Assembly (NCBI GenBank): GCA_009996515.1
Contig: JAACZV010000007.1
Location: 10,482-74,481 of the forward strand
Reading direction: 5' to 3'
DNA length: 64,000 nucleotides
Source of the DNA: Comamonadaceae bacterium
Lineage (GTDB): Bacteria > Pseudomonadota > Gammaproteobacteria > Burkholderiales > Burkholderiaceae_C
The notes under the pieces were generated by a model that was not told where the DNA came from, searched no databases, and saw nothing but the letters and a program-made list of their open reading frames with translations. The position numbers were made by a program, and so were the translations under genes. Shown piece after piece: positions 13,171 through 49,587 of this stretch. Numbering within the stretch: position 1 is the stretch's first letter; each line of letters begins with the position of its first letter.

Positions 13171-14249
<1,079 letters not shown>

Positions 14250-14296
14250 GGCGGGCTCCTAATCAACAAGGTGGGGAAGGCAGTCACGGGGGGCTT

Positions 14297-14313
14297 TGCA
14301 GCTTCCGTGCCAA
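14297..14313 (-). promoter_or_regulatory. Sigma54 (-24/-12) promoter for torF-glnK-amtB
   Basis: Minus strand TTGGCACGGAAGCTGCA = GG-N10-GC with the TGGCACG consensus, 47 bp upstream of the torF ATG. Confidence 0.8.
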
Positions 14314-14416
14314 GCGTCACACCCGGGCGTTGCACCCGGGCCGGCCGCACGAATCTGGGCCGCCGCGGCCCGTCATGCGGGCGCCTGCACCAAGCTGGGA
14401 TGGCCAGGCGGCCGAA

Positions 14417-14433
14417 TTGCACCTCGGCAGTGC
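14417..14433. promoter_or_regulatory. NtrC-type enhancer site
   Basis: TGCACC-TCGGC-AGTGCA is one mismatch from TGCACC-N5-GGTGCA and lies about 105-120 bp upstream of the sigma54 site. An extra TGCACCA half-site is at 14386. Confidence 0.7.
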
Positions 14434-14512
14434 ATCCGGGAAAAAGCACCGAGCGCCGGCCGCGGGCGCGGGGCTAGACTGCCCCGCGCCGCCCGCCGCC
14501 CCGCCCACCTCG

Positions 14513-16036
14513 ATGAGTCTCGCCACCGTCCACAGCCGCGCCCTCGACGGCCTAGCCGCCGCACCGGTGACGGTGGAGGTGCACCTGGCCAATGGGCTGC
14601 CCAGCTTCACCGTCGTGGGCCTGGCGGACACCGAAGTCAAGGAGGCGCGCGAACGCGTGCGCGCCGCGCTGCAGAGCGCGGGCCTGTCTTTTCCCGCCAA
14701 CAAGCGCATCACCGTCAACCTGGCGCCGGCCGACCTGCCCAAGGAGGGCGGCCGCTTCGACCTGCCCATGGCCCTGGGCCTGCTGGCCGCCAACGGCCAG
14801 ATCGACGCCGCCGCACTGGCCCGCTTCGAATGCGCGGGCGAGCTGTCGCTGGCCGGCGAACTGCGCCCGGTGCGCGGCGCGCTGGCCATGGCGCTGGCGC
14901 TGCGCCAGGCCGGCTGCGACCGCGAGCTGCTGCTGCCCGAGGCCAGCGCCGCGGAGGCCGCGCTGGTGGACGGCCTCACGGTGCGCCAGGCCCGGCATCT
15001 GCTGGACGTCGTCGCGGCGCTGCAGCCCCAGGGCGAGGCCCTGCCCCGCGCGGCGGCCCTGCCACGCGCGCACCCCAACGACCCGTCCGATCTCGCCGAC
15101 ATCAAAGGCCAGGCGGCGCCGAAGCGCGCGCTGGAGATCGCCGCCGCGGGTGGCCACAGCCTGCTGATGGTGGGCCCGCCGGGCACGGGCAAGTCCATGC
15201 TGGCGCAGCGCCTGCCGGGCCTGCTGCCGCCGCTGGACGACGCGGCCGCGCTGGAGTCCGCCGCCGTGCTCAGCCTGGCCGGCCAGTTCGACGTCGCGCG
15301 CTGGGGGCAGCGGCCTTTTCGCGCCCCCCATCACTCGGCGTCCAGCGTGGCCCTGGTGGGCGGCGGCTCGCCGCCCCGGCCGGGCGAGATCTCACTGGCC
15401 CAGCATGGCGTGCTGTTCATGGATGAGCTGCCCGAGTTTCCGCGCGCCGCGCTGGAGGCGCTGCGCGAGCCGCTGGAGAGCGGCCGCATCCTGATCTCGA
15501 GGGCGGCGCGCCAGGCCGAGTTCCCGGCGCGCTTCCAGCTCGTCGCCGCCATGAACCCCTGCCCCTGCGGCCAGCTGGGCAACCCGCTGAAGGCCTGCCG
15601 CTGCACGCCGGACCAGGTGGCGCGCTACCAGGGCCGCCTGAGCGGGCCATTTCTTGACCGGCTGGACCTGCTCATCGAGGTGCCCGTCATCCCGCCGCGC
15701 GAGCTGCAGGACATGGCACCGGGCGAACCCAGCGCCGTCGTCGCGGAGCGCGTCGCGGCGGCCCGCCAGCGCGCCACGGACCGCCAGGGCGTCGCCAACG
15801 CACAGCTGCAGGCCCAGGATCTCGCCACCCACGCCGTGCCTGAGCCACCGGCCAAGGCGCTGCTGGAACGCTCGGCCGAGAAGTTAGGATGGTCGGCTCG
15901 CAGCTTCCACCGCGTGCTGCGCGTGGCCCGCACCATCGCCGACCTGGCGGGCACCGGCCAGATCGGCAGCGCCCATGTCGCCGAGGCCGTACAGCTCAGG
16001 CGCGGCTTGCCCGGGGCCATGGGCACGTCCCCGTGA
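14513..16036 (+). CDS. comM: YifB/ComM family Mg-chelatase-like AAA+ ATPase
   Basis: MSLATVHSRAL, ITVNLAPADLPKEGGRFDLP, GPPGTGKS (Walker A), GVLFMDELPEF, AAMNPCPCG. Confidence 0.95.
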   Translation: MSLATVHSRALDGLAAAPVTVEVHLANGLPSFTVVGLADTEVKEARERVRAALQSAGLSFPANKRITVNLAPADLPKEGGRFDLPMALGLLAANGQIDAAALARFECAGELSLAGELRPVRGALAMALALRQAGCDRELLLPEASAAEAALVDGLTVRQARHLLDVVAALQPQGEALPRAAALPRAHPNDPSDLADIKGQAAPKRALEIAAAGGHSLLMVGPPGTGKSMLAQRLPGLLPPLDDAAALESAAVLSLAGQFDVARWGQRPFRAPHHSASSVALVGGGSPPRPGEISLAQHGVLFMDELPEFPRAALEALREPLESGRILISRAARQAEFPARFQLVAAMNPCPCGQLGNPLKACRCTPDQVARYQGRLSGPFLDRLDLLIEVPVIPPRELQDMAPGEPSAVVAERVAAARQRATDRQGVANAQLQAQDLATHAVPEPPAKALLERSAEKLGWSARSFHRVLRVARTIADLAGTGQIGSAHVAEAVQLRRGLPGAMGTSP

Positions 16037-42386: not shown

Positions 42387-42535
42387 GAGGGCATTCCGGA
42401 GCGGGCACGCGAGCATGTTGCCGCGCCGCCCCCATGCCGGAAGTGACGGCGGGTTTGTCCCGAGTAACGACGGGGGCCCGTCGCGCTCAATAGGGGCATG
42501 CAACTCCTGCAGGCCCTCACACCATGCACCCCGGC

Positions 42536-43138
42536 ATGAGCTGGCTGACCCGCCTCGGCTTCGTCGCCCCGTCCGCCGCCTCCACGGCGGGCGACGAGGC
42601 CGCGCTGCTGGCCCGCCTGGCCGACGGCGACGCCGACGCGCTGGAACAGCTCTACCGGCGCGAGAGCGGCGCGGTCTACCGCTACGCCCTCGCGCTGGCC
42701 GGCGACGAGGCCGCGGCGCTGGACGCCGTGCAGGAGGCCTTCGCCCAGCTGCTGCGCGGCCCGCAGGCCTACCAGGCCGGCCGCGGCTCGCTGGGCGCCT
42801 ACCTCGCCGGCATGGCCCGGCATCAGCTGCTGAACCAATGGCGCGACGCGCGCCGCCACGTGCCGCTGGACGACTCGCTAGCCGCCGACGACAGCGCCGA
42901 GGCCCAGCCGGCCAGCGACAGCCGCCTGCAGCAGGCCCAGCAACAGGACGGCCTGTGGGCCGCCATCCGCGCCCTGAGCTGGCCGCAGCGCGAGGCCATC
43001 GTGCTGGTGGATCTGCAGGAGCGCAGCTACGCCGACGCCGCCGCCATCGCCGGCATCAGCGTGGACGTGCTGCGCACCCGGCTGCACCGCGCCCGCCAGC
43101 GCCTGGCCGACCTGCTGGCCGTGGGAGAGAGACCATGA
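42536..43138 (+). CDS. ECF RNA polymerase sigma factor
   Basis: GDADALEQLYRR...VYRYA...DAVQEAF (region 2); QREAIVLVDLQERSYADAAAIAGISVDVLRTRLHRAR (region 4). Confidence 0.92.
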   Translation: MSWLTRLGFVAPSAASTAGDEAALLARLADGDADALEQLYRRESGAVYRYALALAGDEAAALDAVQEAFAQLLRGPQAYQAGRGSLGAYLAGMARHQLLNQWRDARRHVPLDDSLAADDSAEAQPASDSRLQQAQQQDGLWAAIRALSWPQREAIVLVDLQERSYADAAAIAGISVDVLRTRLHRARQRLADLLAVGERP

Positions 43139-43656
43139 GCAAGATCGACGACGACACCCCCGCCTGGCTGCGGCCGGCGCGCGCGGAGTTCGCGCGGCTG
43201 CGGCCCGATGCCGGGCAGGAGGCCGCGCTGCTGGCCCGCCTGGCCGAGCAGCAGCGCGGGCTGCGCGCGCGCCGCCGCGCCGCCGAGATGCGCGCGACGG
43301 CCGAGGCCCATGAGCCACGCTGGCTGCGCCGCCTGGCCTGGGGCAGCGGCGCGCTGGGCGCCATGGCCGCCGTGCTGCTGAGCACCATGCTGCTGCTGGA
43401 CCCGCCCGGCACCCAGACGGCCCGTGCCGCGCCGGCCGGCAGCGGCTTCATCCCGCTGGTGCCCGAGGGCCAGCTGCGCCAGGCCCTGGCGGCCGGTCAA
43501 GGCGCCGCCGTCTGGCTGCAGCCCACCGAGCTGGCGCGCGAACGCCTGGCCCTGCTGGGCCTGCCCTTCGATGCCGCGCGCGCCGACGAGACGGTGCACG
43601 CCGAGCTGATGCTGGACCCGGGCGGCCGGGTGCTGGCCGTGCGCATCCTGAACTGA
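43135..43656 (+). CDS. Putative membrane-anchored anti-sigma factor
   Basis: ATGA-coupled to the sigma gene; one TM helix (LAWGSGALGAMAAVLLSTMLLL); C-terminal GFIPL...LGLP...VHAELMLDPGGRVLAVRI domain. Confidence 0.7.
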   Translation: MSKIDDDTPAWLRPARAEFARLRPDAGQEAALLARLAEQQRGLRARRRAAEMRATAEAHEPRWLRRLAWGSGALGAMAAVLLSTMLLLDPPGTQTARAAPAGSGFIPLVPEGQLRQALAAGQGAAVWLQPTELARERLALLGLPFDAARADETVHAELMLDPGGRVLAVRILN

Positions 43657-43678
43657 GTTGTTGACGAAGGAGAACGAC

Positions 43679-44836
43679 ATGAACACCCCCCTGACCGGTC
43701 TGGCGCTGTGCGCCCTGGGCGCAACGCTGGCGGCATCGGCCACCGCCCAGGAGGCCGAACGCGCGGCGGAACGCGACCTCGAGCGCAGCGTCACGCGCCA
43801 TGTGCAGCTGGCCCTGTCCGACATGCCGGTGCGCATCGCGCTGGGCGACCAGGCCCTGGCCTTCGCCGGCCGCGAGCTGGAGGGCGAACGCGTCGTGCGC
43901 GGCGCCCCCTACTGCGCGACGGCCGTGCATGAGAGCGTGCAGCCGCTGGCCGACGGCAACCGCATCGTGCGCAAGCAGCAGAGCCAGCTCTGCCGCGACG
44001 GCGAAGGCCGCACGCGCCGCGAAGTGCAGCGCGAGGGCGGCCCCAGGGTCGTCTACCTGAACGACCCGGTGGCCAAGACCAGCTGGGTCATCTACCCGGA
44101 CGAGAAACGCATGCAGAAGCTGCGCGGCGCGGTGGGCTGGGCGGCGGGCAGCGACGCGGCCGCCCAGGCCGCCTGGCAGGCCTCCATGCAGGACTGGGGC
44201 GAGCGCATGAAGGAGCAGGCCGCGCGCTGGAAGGAATGGGGCGCCCGCGTGGCCGATCAGGCGCGCAGCGCGGACGCCGAGCGTGTGCGTGCACGCACGC
44301 TGGCCGGCGGCGAGCCGGGCATCATCATCGAGCGGGAGATCGCCGTGCCGTCCGCCCCGGGCGCCAGTGGCGTGGAACGCCGGCGCGAGCTGCGCATCGT
44401 CCGCGCCAGCGAGCTGCCGGCACCGCCCGTGCCGCCCGCGCCCCTGGCCGTGCCCACGCCGCCGCAGCCGCCCATGCCGCTGCTGCAGGGCCTGACGCTG
44501 CTGCCGCGCGAGGGCGGCACGACGACGGCGCTGGCGCCGAAGGAGATCGAAGGCCTCAAGGTCAACGGCGAGCGCACCACCTGGACCCTGGAGGCCGGCA
44601 AGATCGGCAACGAAAAGCCCATCGTCACCGTCCGCGAGGTCTGGCGCAGCCCCGAGCTGATGCTGACCGTGCAGAGCCGCGATGCCGATCCGCGCCAGGG
44701 CGAGCAGAACTACCGGCTGGAGAACATCAGGCGCGGCGAGCCCGACCCGGCGCTGATGAAGCCGCCGGCCGACTACAGCGAAGGGCCGCGGCGCAGCGCG
44801 AAGCCGGCTGCGAGCGCGCCGACGCGCTCGTTCTGA
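43679..44836 (+). CDS. Secreted hypothetical protein, possibly LolA-like beta fold
   Basis: Signal peptide (ASATA/QE); GAPYCA...QPLADGNRI...RDGEGRTRRE and EVWRSPEL...EPDPALMKPPADY segments. Confidence 0.72.
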   Translation: MNTPLTGLALCALGATLAASATAQEAERAAERDLERSVTRHVQLALSDMPVRIALGDQALAFAGRELEGERVVRGAPYCATAVHESVQPLADGNRIVRKQQSQLCRDGEGRTRREVQREGGPRVVYLNDPVAKTSWVIYPDEKRMQKLRGAVGWAAGSDAAAQAAWQASMQDWGERMKEQAARWKEWGARVADQARSADAERVRARTLAGGEPGIIIEREIAVPSAPGASGVERRRELRIVRASELPAPPVPPAPLAVPTPPQPPMPLLQGLTLLPREGGTTTALAPKEIEGLKVNGERTTWTLEAGKIGNEKPIVTVREVWRSPELMLTVQSRDADPRQGEQNYRLENIRRGEPDPALMKPPADYSEGPRRSAKPAASAPTRSF

Positions 44837-44839
44837 CCC

Positions 44840-46522
44840 TCACTCCGCCGGCGTCGCCGGCGCGGCGGGCTTGAGCATGGCGGCGAGGTTCTGCGCCATG
44901 CCAGTGATGCCCTGGTTGGACAGGCCGGCGTCCTGCATGACGGCGTCGACGATGGGCTTGGCGATCTGGTACTGCAGCGCCGAGTTCATGACCTGTTCCG
45001 GGAAGGTCGCGCCGTTGGCGGCGCCACCTTCCGAGCCGCCCTGCCCCGGCATGCCGTTCACCTGAACGATGCGGATGGAGTCGATGTTCTCCATCGGCTT
45101 CACCGCCTCGGCCAGGATGGTGGGCAGCTGCTGCAGCAGCTGGGTGCGCACCTGCAGGTCGATCTGCGCGGCGGACAGCATGTTCAACGCCTCGTTGATC
45201 GCGCGGCGGCCTTCGGCCTCGGCGATGGCGGCGGCCTGCTTGGCCTTGGCCTCGATGGTCAGCGCCTCGGCGCGGTCGATGGCGGCCTCCTTCTCGGCCG
45301 AGGCCGCCACCTTCACCGCGATGGCGTTCTGCTCGGCGTCCTTGCTGGCCTCGATCAGCTGGATGGCCTTCTCGCGCTCGGCCACGGCCACCTGGCGCGC
45401 CGTGTTGACGGTTTCCTCGGCCTTCACGGCCTCGGCGCGCGCCAGGTTGGCGGCGGCGTCGGCCTCGGACTGCTCGCGCGACTTGGTCGCAATGGCGATC
45501 TGCGTGTCCTGGCGTGCGATCTCGACCTGCTTGCGCTGCTCGGCGCGCTTGAGCTCGGCCTGGCGCTCCTGCTCGATCTCGCGCGTCTGGATGACGAGGT
45601 TCTTCTCGATCTCGGCGGCCTTGATCTCGCGCTCGGCCTCGATGCGGCGCTGGCCCACCTGGCGCTCGGCCTCGATCTTGACCGTCTCGGCCTCACGGCC
45701 GCGCTCGGCCTGCTGGGCCGCGATCAGCGCGACCTGCTCGGCCCGCGCCGTCTCGATCTCGCGCTGCTGCGACAGCGAGGCGAACTCCTGGTCCTTCTCG
45801 ATGGTCAGCTTCAGCCGCGAGGCCTCGAGGTTCTTGGTGCGCACCTGCACCTCGGTGTCCTGCTCGACGTCGTTGCGCTGCTTGCGGCGCGCCTCGGTCT
45901 GCTCGGTCAGCCGCGTCAGGCCCTCGGCGTCGAAGGCGTTGTTGGGGTTGAAGAACTGCTTGTCGGTCTGGTCGAGACTCGTCAGCGACACCGACTCCAG
46001 CTCCAGGCCGTTCTTCTCCAGGTCCTCGGCGACGGCGTTCTGCACCGCCTGCACGAAGTCGCGCCGCTTGTCCTGCAGCTCCTGGATGGTCATGGTGGCG
46101 GCGGTGGCGCGCAGGCTGTCCACGAACTTGTCCTCCACCAGCGCCTTCAGCTCGTTGGGGCTCATGGTGCGTGCACCCAGCGTCTGGGCCGCCGTGCTCA
46201 CCGCCTCTTCGGTCTGCTTCACGCGCACGAAGAAGGCCGCCGTCACGTCCACGCGCATGCGGTCCTTGGTGATGAGGCTCTCGCGCTCGCGGCGCAGCAC
46301 TTCGAGCTTGAGCGTGTTCATGTTGACGAGCACGCGCTCGTGGAACACCGGCAGCACGATGGCGCCGCCGTCCATGATGACCTTCTGCCCGCCCAGGCCG
46401 GTGCGCACGAAGGCCGTCTCCTTGGTGCTGCGCTTGTACAGCCGCGCGAAGATGAAGCCTATGGTCAGCAGCCCGACCAGGGCGATACCGGCGAGGCCGG
46501 CGATCTCGATGACGTTTTCCAT
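44840..46522 (-). CDS. yqiK: Flotillin/SPFH family protein (YqiK-like)
   Basis: N-terminal TM; AFVRTGLGGQKV, ITKDRMRVDV, NGLELESVSLT; long AEA-rich coiled coil; KPMENIDSIRIVQV. Confidence 0.92.
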   Translation of the reverse strand: MENVIEIAGLAGIALVGLLTIGFIFARLYKRSTKETAFVRTGLGGQKVIMDGGAIVLPVFHERVLVNMNTLKLEVLRRERESLITKDRMRVDVTAAFFVRVKQTEEAVSTAAQTLGARTMSPNELKALVEDKFVDSLRATAATMTIQELQDKRRDFVQAVQNAVAEDLEKNGLELESVSLTSLDQTDKQFFNPNNAFDAEGLTRLTEQTEARRKQRNDVEQDTEVQVRTKNLEASRLKLTIEKDQEFASLSQQREIETARAEQVALIAAQQAERGREAETVKIEAERQVGQRRIEAEREIKAAEIEKNLVIQTREIEQERQAELKRAEQRKQVEIARQDTQIAIATKSREQSEADAAANLARAEAVKAEETVNTARQVAVAEREKAIQLIEASKDAEQNAIAVKVAASAEKEAAIDRAEALTIEAKAKQAAAIAEAEGRRAINEALNMLSAAQIDLQVRTQLLQQLPTILAEAVKPMENIDSIRIVQVNGMPGQGGSEGGAANGATFPEQVMNSALQYQIAKPIVDAVMQDAGLSNQGITGMAQNLAAMLKPAAPATPAE

Positions 46523-46542
46523 GCTTTCTAGCTCCCTCGTTG

Positions 46543-47169
46543 TCAGATCAGATGGGGGTGCGGGTTGGCGATGCAGCGATAGAACGCCCCCAGCTTGCGC
46601 ACGATCAGGATCTGCGCGCCCTCCTCGAACACTTCATCGTCCAGGTCGGGTTCGACCATCAGGTAATGCGTGCGGCCATGGGCGTCTCGCACCCGGGCCT
46701 GCGCGGCCAGCCCGCGGCGCGCCGCGCCCGCGCTGACCACGCCCGAGCGCCCCACCAGCGACTGCTCGCTGACGGCGCTGCTCTCGTCGCGCGGCACGAT
46801 GTGCGCGACCAGGCTGCCCAGGCCGCGCACGGTGGCCAGGCCCGGCGGCACGGCCAGCAGCCCGGCCAGCCAGGCGGGGACGAAGCCGCCGAACAGGTTG
46901 AACGCCACCTTCTGCAGCGCGTAGCCGAACAGCGCATAGCCCAGCAGGAACAGCAGCAGCAGCACCAGCGCGGGCACGCGGCCCAGGTGCAGCCAGCCGA
47001 GCACGCGGTCCAGCCCCGTCTCGGCCGCATGCTCCGGCAGCCAGCTGTCGATGAGGTTGCTGGGGCTGAGCGCGATCAGCATGCCCAGGCCTTCCAGCAA
47101 CGCAATGGCGACGATCAGCGCGACCGCGACGCCGAAGGGCAGCGTCTCGGGCGAAGTGAACAGGTTCAT
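46543..47169 (-). CDS. yqiJ: YqiJ family membrane protein (NfeD-like OB-fold, DUF1449)
   Basis: ETLPFGVA..., WLHLGRVPALV, and a C-terminal AQARVRDAHGRTHYLMVEP OB-fold; directly upstream of the flotillin gene. Confidence 0.85.
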   Translation of the reverse strand: MNLFTSPETLPFGVAVALIVAIALLEGLGMLIALSPSNLIDSWLPEHAAETGLDRVLGWLHLGRVPALVLLLLFLLGYALFGYALQKVAFNLFGGFVPAWLAGLLAVPPGLATVRGLGSLVAHIVPRDESSAVSEQSLVGRSGVVSAGAARRGLAAQARVRDAHGRTHYLMVEPDLDDEVFEEGAQILIVRKLGAFYRCIANPHPHLI

Positions 47170-47197
47170 CGGCCCTCCCTTGGATTGGACGTTAGTG

Positions 47198-47866
47198 TCA
47201 GGCCTGACCCGCCTTGATCTGCGCCAGGCGTTCCGAAATCTTGTGGTCCCGCACCAGGTCGTCCAGCTCACGCAGCTGCGCGGCCTGCTGCAGGCTGCCG
47301 GCGCGCTGCGTGCCGTCCAGGCCGGTCTGGCGCTGGTAGACCTTGTCGAACGCGTCCGTGACGCGGCCCAGCCGCTGCTCCACGCTCACCTGCCCCAGCG
47401 CTTGGGCGGCCGACTCGGTGGCGGCGCGGCTCCTGCGGAACTCGGCCAGCGCCTCCTGCATCTCGCGCTTCTTGGCCAGCAGCGCCGCGGTGAAGCCCTG
47501 CAGCTCCTGCTCCTGGCGGGCCAGGTCGGCCAGCGTCGTCTCCAGCACGGGGATCTGGGCCTCGATGTCGATCTGCCGCGACACGGCCGCGCGCGCCAGG
47601 TCTTCGCGCTGCTGGGCCAGCGCCTGCGAGATCTGATCGCGCAGCTCCTCGTGGCCGCGGTTGAGCTTGGCGTGCTGCTGCTGGGCCAGGTGGCGGTTGG
47701 CGCTGACGACACCCAGCTCGTGGCGCACCTCGTCGATGACGCCCTCGGCCTCCCGGATGGCCTGCTCCATGACCGCCTGCGGATTGCGGTCCTCGATCTT
47801 GTCCAGTAAGGCGTGCATGCTGCCGGCGATCACGCGGCCCACGCGGGTCTTCAGGGAATCGGCCAT
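47198..47866 (-). CDS. PspA/IM30 family protein
   Basis: N-terminal amphipathic helix (LKTRVGRVIAGSMHALLDKIEDRNPQAVMEQAIRE), coiled coil, EDLARAAV motif, C-terminal ISERLAQIKA. Confidence 0.85.
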   Translation of the reverse strand: MADSLKTRVGRVIAGSMHALLDKIEDRNPQAVMEQAIREAEGVIDEVRHELGVVSANRHLAQQQHAKLNRGHEELRDQISQALAQQREDLARAAVSRQIDIEAQIPVLETTLADLARQEQELQGFTAALLAKKREMQEALAEFRRSRAATESAAQALGQVSVEQRLGRVTDAFDKVYQRQTGLDGTQRAGSLQQAAQLRELDDLVRDHKISERLAQIKAGQA

Positions 47867-47867
47867 G

Positions 47868-48371
47868 TCAGGCTCCTTTCGCGGCGGTGAGCGTCGAGGC
47901 CAGCTCGACGGTGGTGCTGAGGTGGCGCTTCACCACCTCGGGATCGAATGCATGCGCGGCGCCGGTGGTGGCCTGGCGCAGCAGGGATTCGCTGAGCAGC
48001 GCGGCGCGGCGCACCAAGGCGTCCTCCAACCTGGCCGCGTCGCCGGCGGTGGCCGGCGCGGCGCTGACGACCAGGGCCATCAGCGCCGTGACCTGCTCGA
48101 TGAGCTGCCCCAGCACCTCGGAGTGGCGGCCCTCGCTGCCCTCGATGCGCACCAGTGCCTCGCGCAGCCGGTGCGTCAGCTCGCGCGCCCAGGCATGGGC
48201 GGCCACGTAGTCGAAGGCACCGTCGTGCTGGCGCTTGAGCTGGCCCAGCAGCACGCGCAGCTTGTCGCTGTTGGTCGTCGCGCCGTCCACCTGCAGCTGC
48301 GCCAGCCACAGGTAGAGATCGCTCGGGATGCGAGCCGACAAGGGCTCCATCGTGATCGCTTGCGTCGCCAT
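47868..48371 (-). CDS. Hypothetical protein with a putative ribbon-helix-helix N-terminus
   Basis: MEPLSARIPSDLYLWLAQLQVDGATTNSDKLRVLL fits a strand-helix-turn-helix pattern; stop lies 1 bp before the pspA-like ATG. Confidence 0.68.
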   Translation of the reverse strand: MATQAITMEPLSARIPSDLYLWLAQLQVDGATTNSDKLRVLLGQLKRQHDGAFDYVAAHAWARELTHRLREALVRIEGSEGRHSEVLGQLIEQVTALMALVVSAAPATAGDAARLEDALVRRAALLSESLLRQATTGAAHAFDPEVVKRHLSTTVELASTLTAAKGA

Positions 48372-48403
48372 GAGGCACCGCCTTCAAATGAGTTCCAACG
48401 AAC

Positions 48404-48434
48404 ACGAATGTATTCGTTTGAATTCAAATGTCAA
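48404..48434 (-). promoter_or_regulatory. Sigma70 promoter with two overlapping palindromes
   Basis: Minus strand TTGACA-N16-TACATT. Palindromes TTTGAATTCAAA (48417-48428) and ACGAAT-GT-ATTCGT (48404-48417) cover the spacer and the -10. Confidence 0.78.
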
Positions 48435-48534
48435 CGCCGATCACGATCCAGTGTCATCCAGCCATGCGGCAGCACCCCTCCCGAGGTGGGAGAGGCAGCC
48501 GGCTGGGTTGGGGGACGGACGCGCGACGAAGCCG

Positions 48535-49587
48535 TCAGGCGGCGTCCAGCATCTGGGTGAAGAACTTCTCGCCGCTGACGCGCGGCTTGTAGGCCGACAC
48601 GGCCTTGGCGATGGCCGCGATGTGGTCGGGCGTGGTGCCGCAGCAGCCACCGGCGATGTTCAGGAAGCCGGCCTGCGCGAACTCGCCCACCAGGCGGGCC
48701 GTGACGTCCGGCGTCTCGTCGAAGCCGGTGTCGCTCATGGGGTTGGGCAGGCCGGCGTTGGGGTAGCAGCTCACGGCCACCTCGCCCGCCACCTTGGACA
48801 GCTCCTCGATGTAGGGCCGCATCAGCGTCGCGCCCAACGCGCAGTTCAGGCCGATGGCGATGGGCCGCGCATGGCGCACCGAGTGCCAGAAGGCCGTGAC
48901 CGTCTGGCCCGACAGGATGCGGCCGGACGCATCCGTCACCGTGCCCGAGATGATGACGGGCAGGCGCTCGCCGGTGTCTTCCATCAGCTCGTCCAAGGCA
49001 AAGATGGCGGCCTTGGCGTTCAGCGTGTCGAAGATGGTCTCGACGAGGAAGAGGTCGGCGCCGCCGTCCAGCAACCCCTTGGCCTGCTCGTAGTAGGCCG
49101 CGCGCAGCCGGTCGAAGTCGATGTTGCGCGCGCCGGGGTCGTTGACGTCGGGGCTGATGGAGGCGGTGCGCGGCGTGGGGCCCAGCGCGCCGGCGACGAA
49201 CCGCGGTTTGTCGGGCGTCGAGTACTTGTCGCAGGCGGCGCGGGCGATCTGCGCGGCGACCAGGTTCATCTCGTAGGCCAGCTCGGGCAGGTCGTAGTCT
49301 TCCTGCGCGATGGAGGTGGCGCCGAAGGTGTTGGTCTCGATGATGTCGGCGCCGGCGGCCAGGTATTGCTCGTGGATCTCGCGGATCACGTCGGGCCGCG
49401 TGAACAGCAGCAACTCGTTGTTGCCCTTCAAGTCCTTGCCATGGTCTTTGAAGCGCTCGCCGCGGTAGTCGGCCTCGCCGAGCTTGTAGCGCTGGATCAT
49501 GGTGCCCATGGCGCCGTCGAGCACGGCAATGCGGCTCTGCAGCAGGGCGGGCAGGTCTTGGGCGCGGGTGTAGGCGATGGGCTTCAT
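48535..49587 (-). CDS. metH: Methionine synthase, N-terminal homocysteine-binding domain (stand-alone)
   Basis: [61 protein letters not shown]; 350 aa, then stop. Confidence 0.95.

Follow-up and report, generated by a model that had tools for sequence, protein, structure and literature searches.

In this study, we have found that four tightly packed minus-strand genes in the 64,000-nucleotide stretch of DNA that was analysed (the window) form a real, widely conserved membrane-stress cassette. Its new element is the first gene, which, with moderate support, appears to encode a ribbon-helix-helix (RHH) regulator of an undescribed family and is accompanied by a conserved putative operator. We consider it fairly probable that the whole constitutes a self-contained, self-repressed, sigma-70-driven four-gene Psp-like envelope-stress cassette. 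The earlier note on this DNA had described the four genes, and both their packing and their identities were borne out by the open reading frames, by Pfam, and by comparisons with Escherichia coli. The cassette (48371-44840) encodes, in order, a 167-amino-acid protein with no family match, comprising an RHH-like N-terminal region (approximately residues 8 to 51) and a C-terminal four-helix bundle (residues 55 to 166) (47868..48371); a PspA/IM30 (ESCRT-III-like) protein of 222 amino acids (47198..47866; PF04012); YqiJ, an NfeD2-type inner-membrane protein of 208 amino acids (46543..47169; PF21001 and PF07290); and the SPFH2a-type flotillin YqiK, of 560 amino acids (44840..46522; Band_7 and Flot domains). 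The intergenic gaps are 1, 28, and 20 nt. The yqiK stop codon (44842-44840) lies 3 bp from the stop of a convergent 392-amino-acid gene (44836), exactly as had been claimed. The G+C content of the cassette is host-like, and its setting is chromosomal, among housekeeping genes. A scan revealed no intrinsic terminator, a hairpin at the convergent junction was no better than shuffled sequence (z -0.67), and an Rfam search over 44000-49000 returned no RNA family.

This arrangement recurs at every occurrence of the first gene, across the Alpha-, Beta-, and Gammaproteobacteria as well as on a megaplasmid. The synteny survey that the earlier note had proposed showed this order at 80/80 genome loci carrying a first-gene homologue (78 complete, 2 cut by contig ends) and in all seven of the distant relatives (22 to 36% identity), Alphaproteobacteria among them; the Vitreoscilla megaplasmid pVF1 carries the cassette in the same order. 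The first gene and pspA are separated by 1 nt in 66 of the 78 complete loci, there is a 4-nt overlap between pspA and yqiJ in 50 of them, and metatranscriptome contigs of a relative span all three gene junctions, though these are assemblies from another strain in which DNA may be present. Outside Roseateles the flanking genes vary. The convergent gene had been described as ECF linked, and its adjacency is real, but the linkage is specific to Roseateles; the ECF sigma, anti-sigma, and secreted-protein genes were considered as parts of the cassette and were ruled out because they are conserved only within that genus.

The PspA-like protein matches PF04012 over its full length (E 1.4e-15; 57.9 bits against a cutoff of 33.9), with residues 8 to 219 covering model positions 5 to 216 of 220, and shares 30% identity with E. 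coli PspA (BLAST E 9e-10); its comparison with E. coli YjfJ gave no significant BLAST similarity (E 2.7). It scores 47.1 against a cutoff of 243 for the equivalog model TIGR02977, and is therefore not a PspA equivalog, and 29.7 against 336 for NF007974. YqiJ consists of an N-terminal transmembrane domain (PF21001, YqiJ_N; 2e-31) and a C-terminal OB fold (PF07290, YqiJ_OB; 8e-29), shares 30% identity with E. coli YqiJ along its entire length, and, as a member of the YqiJ family, has a yqiK flotillin gene 20 nt downstream. Its start was placed at the ATG at 47169, behind GGGAGGG, because residue 1 of E. coli YqiJ aligns there; on the same alignment, a longer GTG open reading frame from 47271 was set aside. 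YqiK belongs with the bacterial flotillins (YqiK/FloT, SPFH2), which combine a hydrophobic anchor at the N terminus with a Band_7/SPFH domain, a coiled coil, and a Flot domain. It carries Band_7 (PF01145, 1e-18) and Flot (PF15975, 1e-35) and is 53% identical to E. coli YqiK, and its score for the FloT equivalog is below the cutoff (75.9 against 700). Conservation across the 80 loci is highest for YqiK (82 to 97% identity) and lowest for the PspA-like protein (42 to 97%).

A sigma-70 promoter drives the four genes as one tightly coupled unit. The sigma-70-type promoter that had been proposed is the single sequence TTGACA-16-TACATT at 48434-48407 (-35 hexamer, 48429..48434; -10 hexamer, 48407..48412; minus strand), which has 10 of the 12 consensus bases, where 0.2 such sites were expected by chance. 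Superimposed on it is the putative operator, a near-palindrome of 38 bp (48389..48426, minus strand) containing four GAATTC-like hexamers spaced 10 bp apart: GAATTC (48425-48420), GAATAC (48415-48410), GTGTTC (48405-48400), and GAACTC (48395-48390). It takes in the spacer along with the -10 box, the predicted start site, and the early 5' untranslated region; complementarity between its inverted arms (48389-48405 and 48410-48426) is 82%, and the pattern is unique within the 64 kb (0.02 expected). Among 48 non-redundant upstream regions, whose consensus is tGTTGACAa.cGAATTCaaatGAATACA.TtG.aTTCAa, the -35 TTGAC is kept in nearly all and the -10 TACAnT is kept as part of an invariant GAATACA block; in six of the seven distant loci the upstream region contains related yGwATACAwwyG palindromes. 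The putative operator overlaps the -35 and -10 elements, and so part of its conservation is simply that of the promoter. Conservation also continues across the spacer and beyond the -10 box, in positions for which a promoter by itself has no sequence requirement.

The earlier note had also reported that pspB, pspC, pspF, and a sigma-54 site were missing from the vicinity, and this held. E. coli PspB, PspC, PspD, and PspF queries found no match in the 64 kb by tblastn (the E-values for PspB and PspC were at least 0.1), with the sole exception of a weak AAA+ match at 15161-15556, which was rejected as PspF since Pfam identifies it as a Mg-chelatase/YifB-type protein. No sigma-54 consensus was found upstream of the operon with up to two mismatches allowed. 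The hallmarks of a classical Psp system, namely, PspF with a sigma-54 promoter and PspB and PspC alongside pspA, are thus not present within the window.

The first gene had been called hypothetical, which was right in that its product matches no known family but passed over its RHH-like regulator features and the conserved putative operator. The 167-amino-acid protein found no match in Pfam, NCBIfam, PADLOC, or PHROGs; searches of PDB sequences, including those with full-length profiles and an N-terminal profile, were also negative, with no RHH chain found by the N-terminal HMM. Pfam searches with 18 and with 104 family members, at E-values up to 10, gave scattered chance matches alone, none of the 104 matched a Pfam RHH model, and a tblastn search of plasmids with the N-terminal consensus returned only another family member. 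The family numbers 311 clusters at 50% identity, all of whose members are annotated as "hypothetical protein," and judged by these sequence searches it is previously undescribed. Residues R14, A31, T33, S35, K37, R39, S84, and E116 are invariant, and conservation is strongest in the N-terminal 50 residues, not in the bundle, where the conserved polar residues are E77, H83, S84, and E116.

With a shallow alignment, AlphaFold2 gave a low-quality model (pLDDT 62) whose Foldseek matches were meaningless. The model from a deeper alignment (pLDDT 87) has an extended segment at residues 8 to 16, helices at 17 to 25 and 34 to 51, and then a four-helix bundle. With this model, Foldseek gave no significant match in either the PDB or the viral library; a match to the Spastin MIT/ESCRT-III structure (E 9.8) was dismissed as noise. 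Comparison of the N terminus with a validated RHH profile by hhalign gave a P value of 2.3e-4 and a probability of only 44%; its score of 20.1 was reached by none of 200 shuffles (mean, 7.9; standard deviation, 1.8; maximum, 14.4). The alignment is in register, through strand, helix A, turn, and helix B, with Arc, CopG, NikR, RelB, and other RHH cores, although in the monomer model the N-terminal segment is extended and not a strand. R14, in the strand, and T33/S35, at the helix B cap, occupy what we take to be the positions at which RHH proteins contact DNA. These data lend moderate support to the view that the first protein is an RHH DNA-binding protein, which would repress its own operon as the probable ligand of the putative operator.

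We postulate that the RHH-like protein would bind, as a dimer of dimers or in a higher oligomeric state, to the hexamer array, whose units lie one helical turn apart. Bound across the spacer, -10 box, and start site, it would repress its own operon and so stand in for PspF and sigma-54 as the regulator. By analogy with known systems, YqiK, with its N-terminal hairpin anchor, and YqiJ, with its OB fold, may form an SPFH/NfeD scaffold that positions PspA, much as YdjI does with YdjGH in Bacillus subtilis, where PspA foci depend on the SPFH protein YdjI (PMC8581546); on these grounds it is plausible that the YqiJ/YqiK scaffold recruits PspA. The C-terminal four-helix bundle may receive the signal, most simply by binding PspA, and repression would be released when PspA moved to damaged membrane at the YqiJ/YqiK platform. 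Such negative feedback would follow the logic of PspA-PspF in E. coli and of BacA in Pseudomonas aeruginosa, where the other Bac proteins increase 6- to 13-fold once the first bac gene is lost (PMC10948618). This partner switch, in which an RHH repressor with a four-helix receiver binds PspA directly and PspA assembly at the flotillin/YqiJ platform sets transcription, is a tentative proposal; if true, it would add a third solution to Psp feedback, independent of those that use PspF/sigma-54 and the CesT-like BacA.

It is conceivable, though unlikely, that the first protein acts as a chaperone or adaptor specific to PspA, the functional counterpart of the DUF2170/CesT-like BacA and YjfI, that keeps PspA soluble or passes it to YqiJ/YqiK, the palindrome being bound by a factor encoded elsewhere. 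Its gene lies immediately upstream of pspA and is coupled to it, like the CesT/Tir-like gene of the CesT-PspA dyad (PMC11237479), the protein is mostly a helical bundle whose conserved polar residues would suit a protein interface, and the support for an RHH fold is moderate, not decisive. However, the in-register RHH match beats every shuffle, the N terminus is better conserved than the bundle, and the operator-like palindrome stays with the cassette from class to class despite changing flanking genes, so that no other regulator is linked to it. Homology of the first gene to BacA was itself considered and rejected, given that the protein has no PF09938 match, no BLAST match to E. coli YjfI, and an all-helical model after the extended N terminus.

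Two features, the near-invariant spacer and post--10 sequence and a universally linked first gene with an RHH-like N terminus, are left unexplained if there is no dedicated regulator and the flotillin/NfeD scaffold replacing PspBC is the only special feature of an operon with a strong, essentially constitutive sigma-70 promoter. This explanation is improbable, even though the promoter has a 10/12 consensus match, PspBC and PspF are not found in the window, and SPFH-dependent localization of PspA has a precedent (PMC8581546). We regard as quite improbable a cassette that is mainly a flotillin microdomain system like E. coli yqiJK, with PspA serving the scaffold, for example, by remodeling or dismantling SPFH assemblies: YqiK is indeed better conserved than PspA, and yqiJK pairs without PspA occur in E. 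coli and widely elsewhere (PMC11237479), but what is known of PspA is a role in membrane repair, and in B. subtilis it is PspA that depends on the SPFH protein (PMC8581546). An anti-phage or mobile-element function is extremely improbable; the "phage shock" name and the one megaplasmid copy might suggest it, but the four proteins have no significant PADLOC match and no PHROGs match at all, and the cassette studied here is chromosomal, with host-like G+C and housekeeping neighbors.

PspA-SPFH operons are already known, in the form of P. aeruginosa bac, B. subtilis pspA-ydjGHI, and the survey by Ravi et al. in 2024. PspA-flotillin neighborhoods had been said to be noted bioinformatically, correctly so: both Ravi et al. 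and Popp et al. have compiled PspA/band-7/flotillin/YqiJ neighborhoods (PMC11237479, PMC9239133). To call the mechanism uncharacterized was an overstatement, since the PspA-containing P. aeruginosa bac operon (bacABCDEF, from PA3732) has been studied (PMC2587700, PMC10948618), and in B. subtilis experiments have shown that an SPFH protein localizes PspA, recruiting it to the membrane without PspBC (PMC8581546). Like bac and the CesT/Tir-PspA class of Ravi et al. (PMC11237479), the cassette has a small first gene coupled to a PspA-family gene, with no PspBC; as in that class, a YqiJ-type membrane protein and a band-7/flotillin protein then follow, with all the genes co-transcribed, and as in bac the first gene is proposed to exert negative control over the others. 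The tentative designation of PA3730 and PA3729 as YqiJ- and flotillin-type proteins comes from their reported sizes and the class description of Ravi et al. Whereas the bac-class first gene encodes a DUF2170 protein with a CesT-like alpha/beta fold and its PspA is of the YjfJ type, the first protein here is all alpha with an RHH-like N terminus, and the PspA resembles PspA proper, so that neither defining trait of the CesT/Tir-PspA dyad is present. A sigma-54 site has been proposed for bac, in contrast to the sigma-70 promoter and putative operator found here, and the AAA+/beta-propeller and phospholipase-D genes listed for the class by Ravi et al. are absent here.

The B. subtilis pspA-ydjGHI operon (samGHI; PMC8581546) likewise co-encodes PspA with an SPFH protein and membrane partners; however, its SPFH protein, YdjI, is soluble and not a flotillin, YdjG and YdjH bear no relationship to YqiJ, the operon lacks an RHH gene, and it is regulated differently. 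With E. coli pspF-pspABCDE the cassette shares a PspA effector and, as proposed, PspA feedback on its own regulator, but PspF, PspB, PspC, and the sigma-54 promoter are not found in the window and the PspA falls below the equivalog model. The E. coli yqiJ-yqiK genes are an orthologous pair in the same order but have no pspA or regulator gene upstream. Like the RHH autorepressors with a C-terminal partner-binding domain (RelB, ParD, FitA, NikR, CopG, and Arc), the first protein appears to have an N-terminal strand-helix-helix region, with a basic strand residue and a Ser/Thr helix B cap; its gene likewise stands first in the operon, and the putative operator consists of short repeats on one DNA face that overlap the promoter. 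Unlike them, it has no RHH Pfam match, its four-helix bundle has no detectable relative, and its proposed partner is an ESCRT-III-like protein and not a toxin or metal. The clgR operon of Mycobacterium tuberculosis resembles the cassette in its four-gene design, in which a transcription factor is followed by PspA and two membrane-associated partners, with no PspF or PspBC; however, ClgR is a helix-turn-helix activator, and its membrane partners are unrelated to YqiJ/YqiK. This operon, clgR-pspA-rv2743c-rv2742c, is cited in PMC10948618 and PMC11237479.

In conclusion, PspA, IM30, and Vipp1 are bacterial ESCRT-III membrane-repair machines, and, outside the PspF-PspBC model of E. coli, the cassette joins PspA to a true flotillin/NfeD pair, apparently with its own compact regulator and operator. 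It would offer a minimal and portable system of approximately 3.6 kb for the study of the link between flotillin scaffolds and ESCRT-III-like repair, of effector feedback, and of a new DNA-binding family, and naming the 167-amino-acid family, with its approximately 300 clusters at 50% identity, would improve many annotations.

The cassette, a run of four minus-strand genes, is a conserved, tightly coupled unit preceded by a sigma-70 promoter that carries an operator-like array. The gene calls of the earlier note were right, as judged from the open reading frames, Pfam matches, and comparison with Escherichia coli YqiK and YqiJ. The first gene (48371-47868) is an open reading frame for a 167-aa protein without a family match; it is followed by pspA (PspA/IM30; 47866-47198), which matches PF04012 over its full length, yqiJ (47169-46543; PF21001 and PF07290), and the flotillin gene yqiK (46522-44840; Band_7 and Flot), whose product is 53% identical to E. 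coli YqiK. The start of yqiJ was placed at the ATG at 47169, which is preceded by the ribosome-binding site GGGAGGG, because residue 1 of E. coli YqiJ aligns there; a longer GTG open reading frame overlapping pspA was rejected on these grounds. The intergenic gaps are 1, 28, and 20 nt. The window, of about 70% G+C, derives from a Roseateles/Pelomonas-like betaproteobacterium. The sigma70-type promoter that the earlier note had described was found at 48434-48407 (TTGACA-N16-TACATT), the only such promoter between 44600 and 48700 (0.2 expected by chance), and its statement that pspB, pspC, pspF, and a sigma-54 site are absent nearby holds for the genes within the 64-kb window and for the site upstream of the operon. 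No sigma-54 consensus was present upstream of the operon, and E. coli PspB, PspC, PspD, and PspF used as queries gave no match within the window apart from one weak AAA+ match. The latter, the sole similarity in the window to the PspF ATPase core, was rejected as PspF, since it is a 610-aa Mg-chelatase/YifB(ComM)-type protein (14204-16036, plus strand). Within the window, the cassette does not qualify as a classical Psp system.

The synteny survey that had been suggested, conducted with one genome per species, recovered 80 loci with a first-gene homologue. Among them, Betaproteobacteria are represented by Roseateles, Acidovorax, Ideonella, Rubrivivax, Aquabacterium, Caldimonas, Zoogloea, Azospira, and Accumulibacter, and Gammaproteobacteria by Nevskia. 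The four-gene order was kept in all 80 loci, 78 of them complete and 2 cut by contig ends. Complete genomes with the cassette include that of Roseateles chitinivorans P36 (NZ_CP192577.1). Of 78 loci, 66 have a first-gene stop separated from the pspA start by 1 nt, and 50 have a 4-nt overlap between pspA and yqiJ. All three gene junctions are spanned by contigs of a relative (about 90-97% identical) in a wastewater metatranscriptome; this is consistent with co-transcription, although such contigs can contain DNA. Profile searching of 1.84 billion representative proteins yielded 311 clusters of the first-protein family, nearly all 160-190 aa in length. Seven distant members (22-36% identity), including alphaproteobacterial Labrenzia/Roseibium, all keep the four-gene order among unrelated neighbors. 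The cassette is also carried, with the same promoter and hexamer layout, by the 283-kb nonmobilizable megaplasmid pVF1 of Vitreoscilla filiformis (NZ_CP022424.1, 269435-272989), where RefSeq labels its products hypothetical protein, PspA/IM30 family protein, YqiJ family protein, and flotillin domain-containing protein. These findings are evidence for an ancient, portable cassette. A soil-metagenome run contained 100% of the sampled words, and one of its contigs (7.4 kb) was identical to the window across the operon; the run probably represents the sample of origin or the same strain.

Flanking genes are common to Roseateles only, with metH upstream and genes for an ECF sigma factor, an anti-sigma factor, and a secreted protein downstream; the conserved unit therefore comprises the four genes, with the ECF genes as mere neighbors. 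In the window, this trio lies on the plus strand, convergent to the operon, and comprises the ECF sigma factor (42524-43138), the putative anti-sigma factor (about 43135-43656), and a 392-aa protein (43658-44836) with an apparent signal peptide by eye and no Pfam match, whose stop lies 3 bp from that of yqiK. At this junction, the 3' end of the 392-aa gene contains a perfect 7-bp hairpin, GAGCGCG-TCGG-CGCGCTC (44816-44833), which lacks a T-run and shows no better folding than shuffled sequence (z, -0.67). Judged from its translation, a minus-strand open reading frame on the other side of the cassette (48535 to about 49587) seems to encode about 350 aa of N-terminal methionine synthase (MetH) sequence, apparently as a separate gene.

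The upstream regions of the 80 loci were aligned and cut to 48 representatives less than 80% identical pairwise, giving the consensus tGTTGACAa.cGAATTCaaatGAATACA.TtG.aTTCAa. Conservation passes well beyond the -35 and -10 hexamers, continuing through the spacer and beyond the probable start site, which is predicted near 48400 in the window; farther upstream, the sequence is unconserved. In the window, the putative operator has four GAATTC-like hexamers at an exact 10-bp spacing, namely, GAATTC (48425-48420), GAATAC (48415-48410), GTGTTC (48405-48400), and GAACTC (48395-48390), which make up a pair of inverted 17-nt arms with 82% complementarity; the pattern was found once in 64 kb (0.02 expected). 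The array is flanked by an exact 8-nt direct repeat (48383-48390 and 48423-48430, 40 bp apart), which reads CATTTGAA on the coding strand. Related palindromes centered on GTATAC or GAATAC lie beside TTGACA in six of the seven distant loci (for example, CGTATACATATG, TGAATACATTCG, and ACATTTGTATACAAATGT). That this element tracks the cassette across classes amid changing neighbors argues for a regulator carried by the cassette itself. The ribbon-helix-helix (RHH)-like first gene is the sole candidate, and we infer that its product binds the operator.

The first-gene family is new to the databases: in Pfam, NCBIfam, PADLOC, PHROGs, and PDB sequences, nothing matched the 167-aa protein, whether the query was its sequence or a profile. 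Its most conserved part is the N-terminal 50 residues, which read EPLSARIPSDLYLWLAQLQVEGATTNSDKLRVLLGQLKRQ in close relatives and VPLSVRIsxeDAeFLAxLxixGAxTPSDKLRAlI across the family. An AlphaFold2 model from a 47-sequence alignment (pLDDT, 87) has an extended segment (residues 8-16), two helices (17-25 and 34-51), and a four-helix bundle (55-166); the extended segment and two helices have the look of an RHH domain modeled as a monomer. The family N terminus was compared by hhalign with an RHH profile built from 13 cores (Arc, Mnt, CopG, MetJ, NikR, ParD, omega, FitA, RelB, DinJ, CcdA, PutA, and AmrZ), which was validated in that it retrieves exactly those PDB entries. The P value was 2.3e-4, but the probability was just 44%. 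The register placed strand on strand, helix A on helix A, and the G-x-T/S turn on the helix B cap, and the score of 20.1 was attained by none of 200 column shuffles (mean, 7.9; standard deviation, 1.8; maximum, 14.4), with the reversed profile scoring 9.5. The invariant residues R14, T33, S35, K37, and R39 presumably sit where RHH proteins touch bases and phosphates. Pfam RHH models did not match the family, and Foldseek found nothing significant with the model in the PDB or a viral library. On balance, we consider it more likely than not that the first protein is an RHH protein. No relative of the C-terminal bundle was detectable; its conserved polar residues E77, H83, S84, and E116 suggest a putative binding site. 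A 1559-aa protein from the profile search matches family-profile positions 86-130 a total of 27 times (E value, 1e-40) and could represent a repeat protein assembled from a portion of the bundle domain, or else a low-complexity artifact.

An RHH autorepressor role for the first protein is moderately supported. RHH dimers would cooperate on one face of the DNA, occluding the -10 box and the start site, and the bundle domain would take in a signal, most simply PspA itself, so that repression would be relieved as PspA moves to the stressed membrane; YqiJ and YqiK would form an SPFH/NfeD platform positioning PspA. Signal reception, derepression, and the platform are postulated purely by analogy, which three precedents support. 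In E. coli, PspA inhibits PspF. In Pseudomonas aeruginosa, the remaining Bac proteins rise 6- to 13-fold when the first gene of the bac operon is deleted, and binding of BacB by BacA has been reported (PMC10948618). The membrane foci of Bacillus subtilis PspA require the SPFH protein YdjI together with YdjGH (PMC8581546). The central proposal of the earlier note, that a flotillin/NfeD scaffold may act in place of PspBC, is reasonable and has published precedent.

Links between PspA and SPFH proteins are already known. The PspA-flotillin neighborhoods to which the earlier note alluded have indeed been catalogued, with PspA alongside band-7/flotillin, NfeD, and YqiJ/YuaF proteins, by Popp et al. 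(PMC9239133) and Ravi et al. (PMC11237479), and the bac cluster has been under study since 2008 (PMC2587700). Unlike the cassette, the bac/CesT class has a DUF2170/CesT-like first gene, a PspA of the YjfJ type, AAA+/beta-propeller and phospholipase-D genes, none of which follow the cassette, and a proposed sigma-54 site in place of a sigma-70 promoter with a putative operator. Full-text literature searches yielded no report of a PspA-YqiJ-YqiK operon led by an RHH gene; in Ravi et al., an RHH factor appears solely as the final gene of another operon type, one linked to polyamines (PMC11237479). Beyond the earlier note, these results provide the cassette with a probable regulator and its putative operator, together with evidence for an ancient portable unit.
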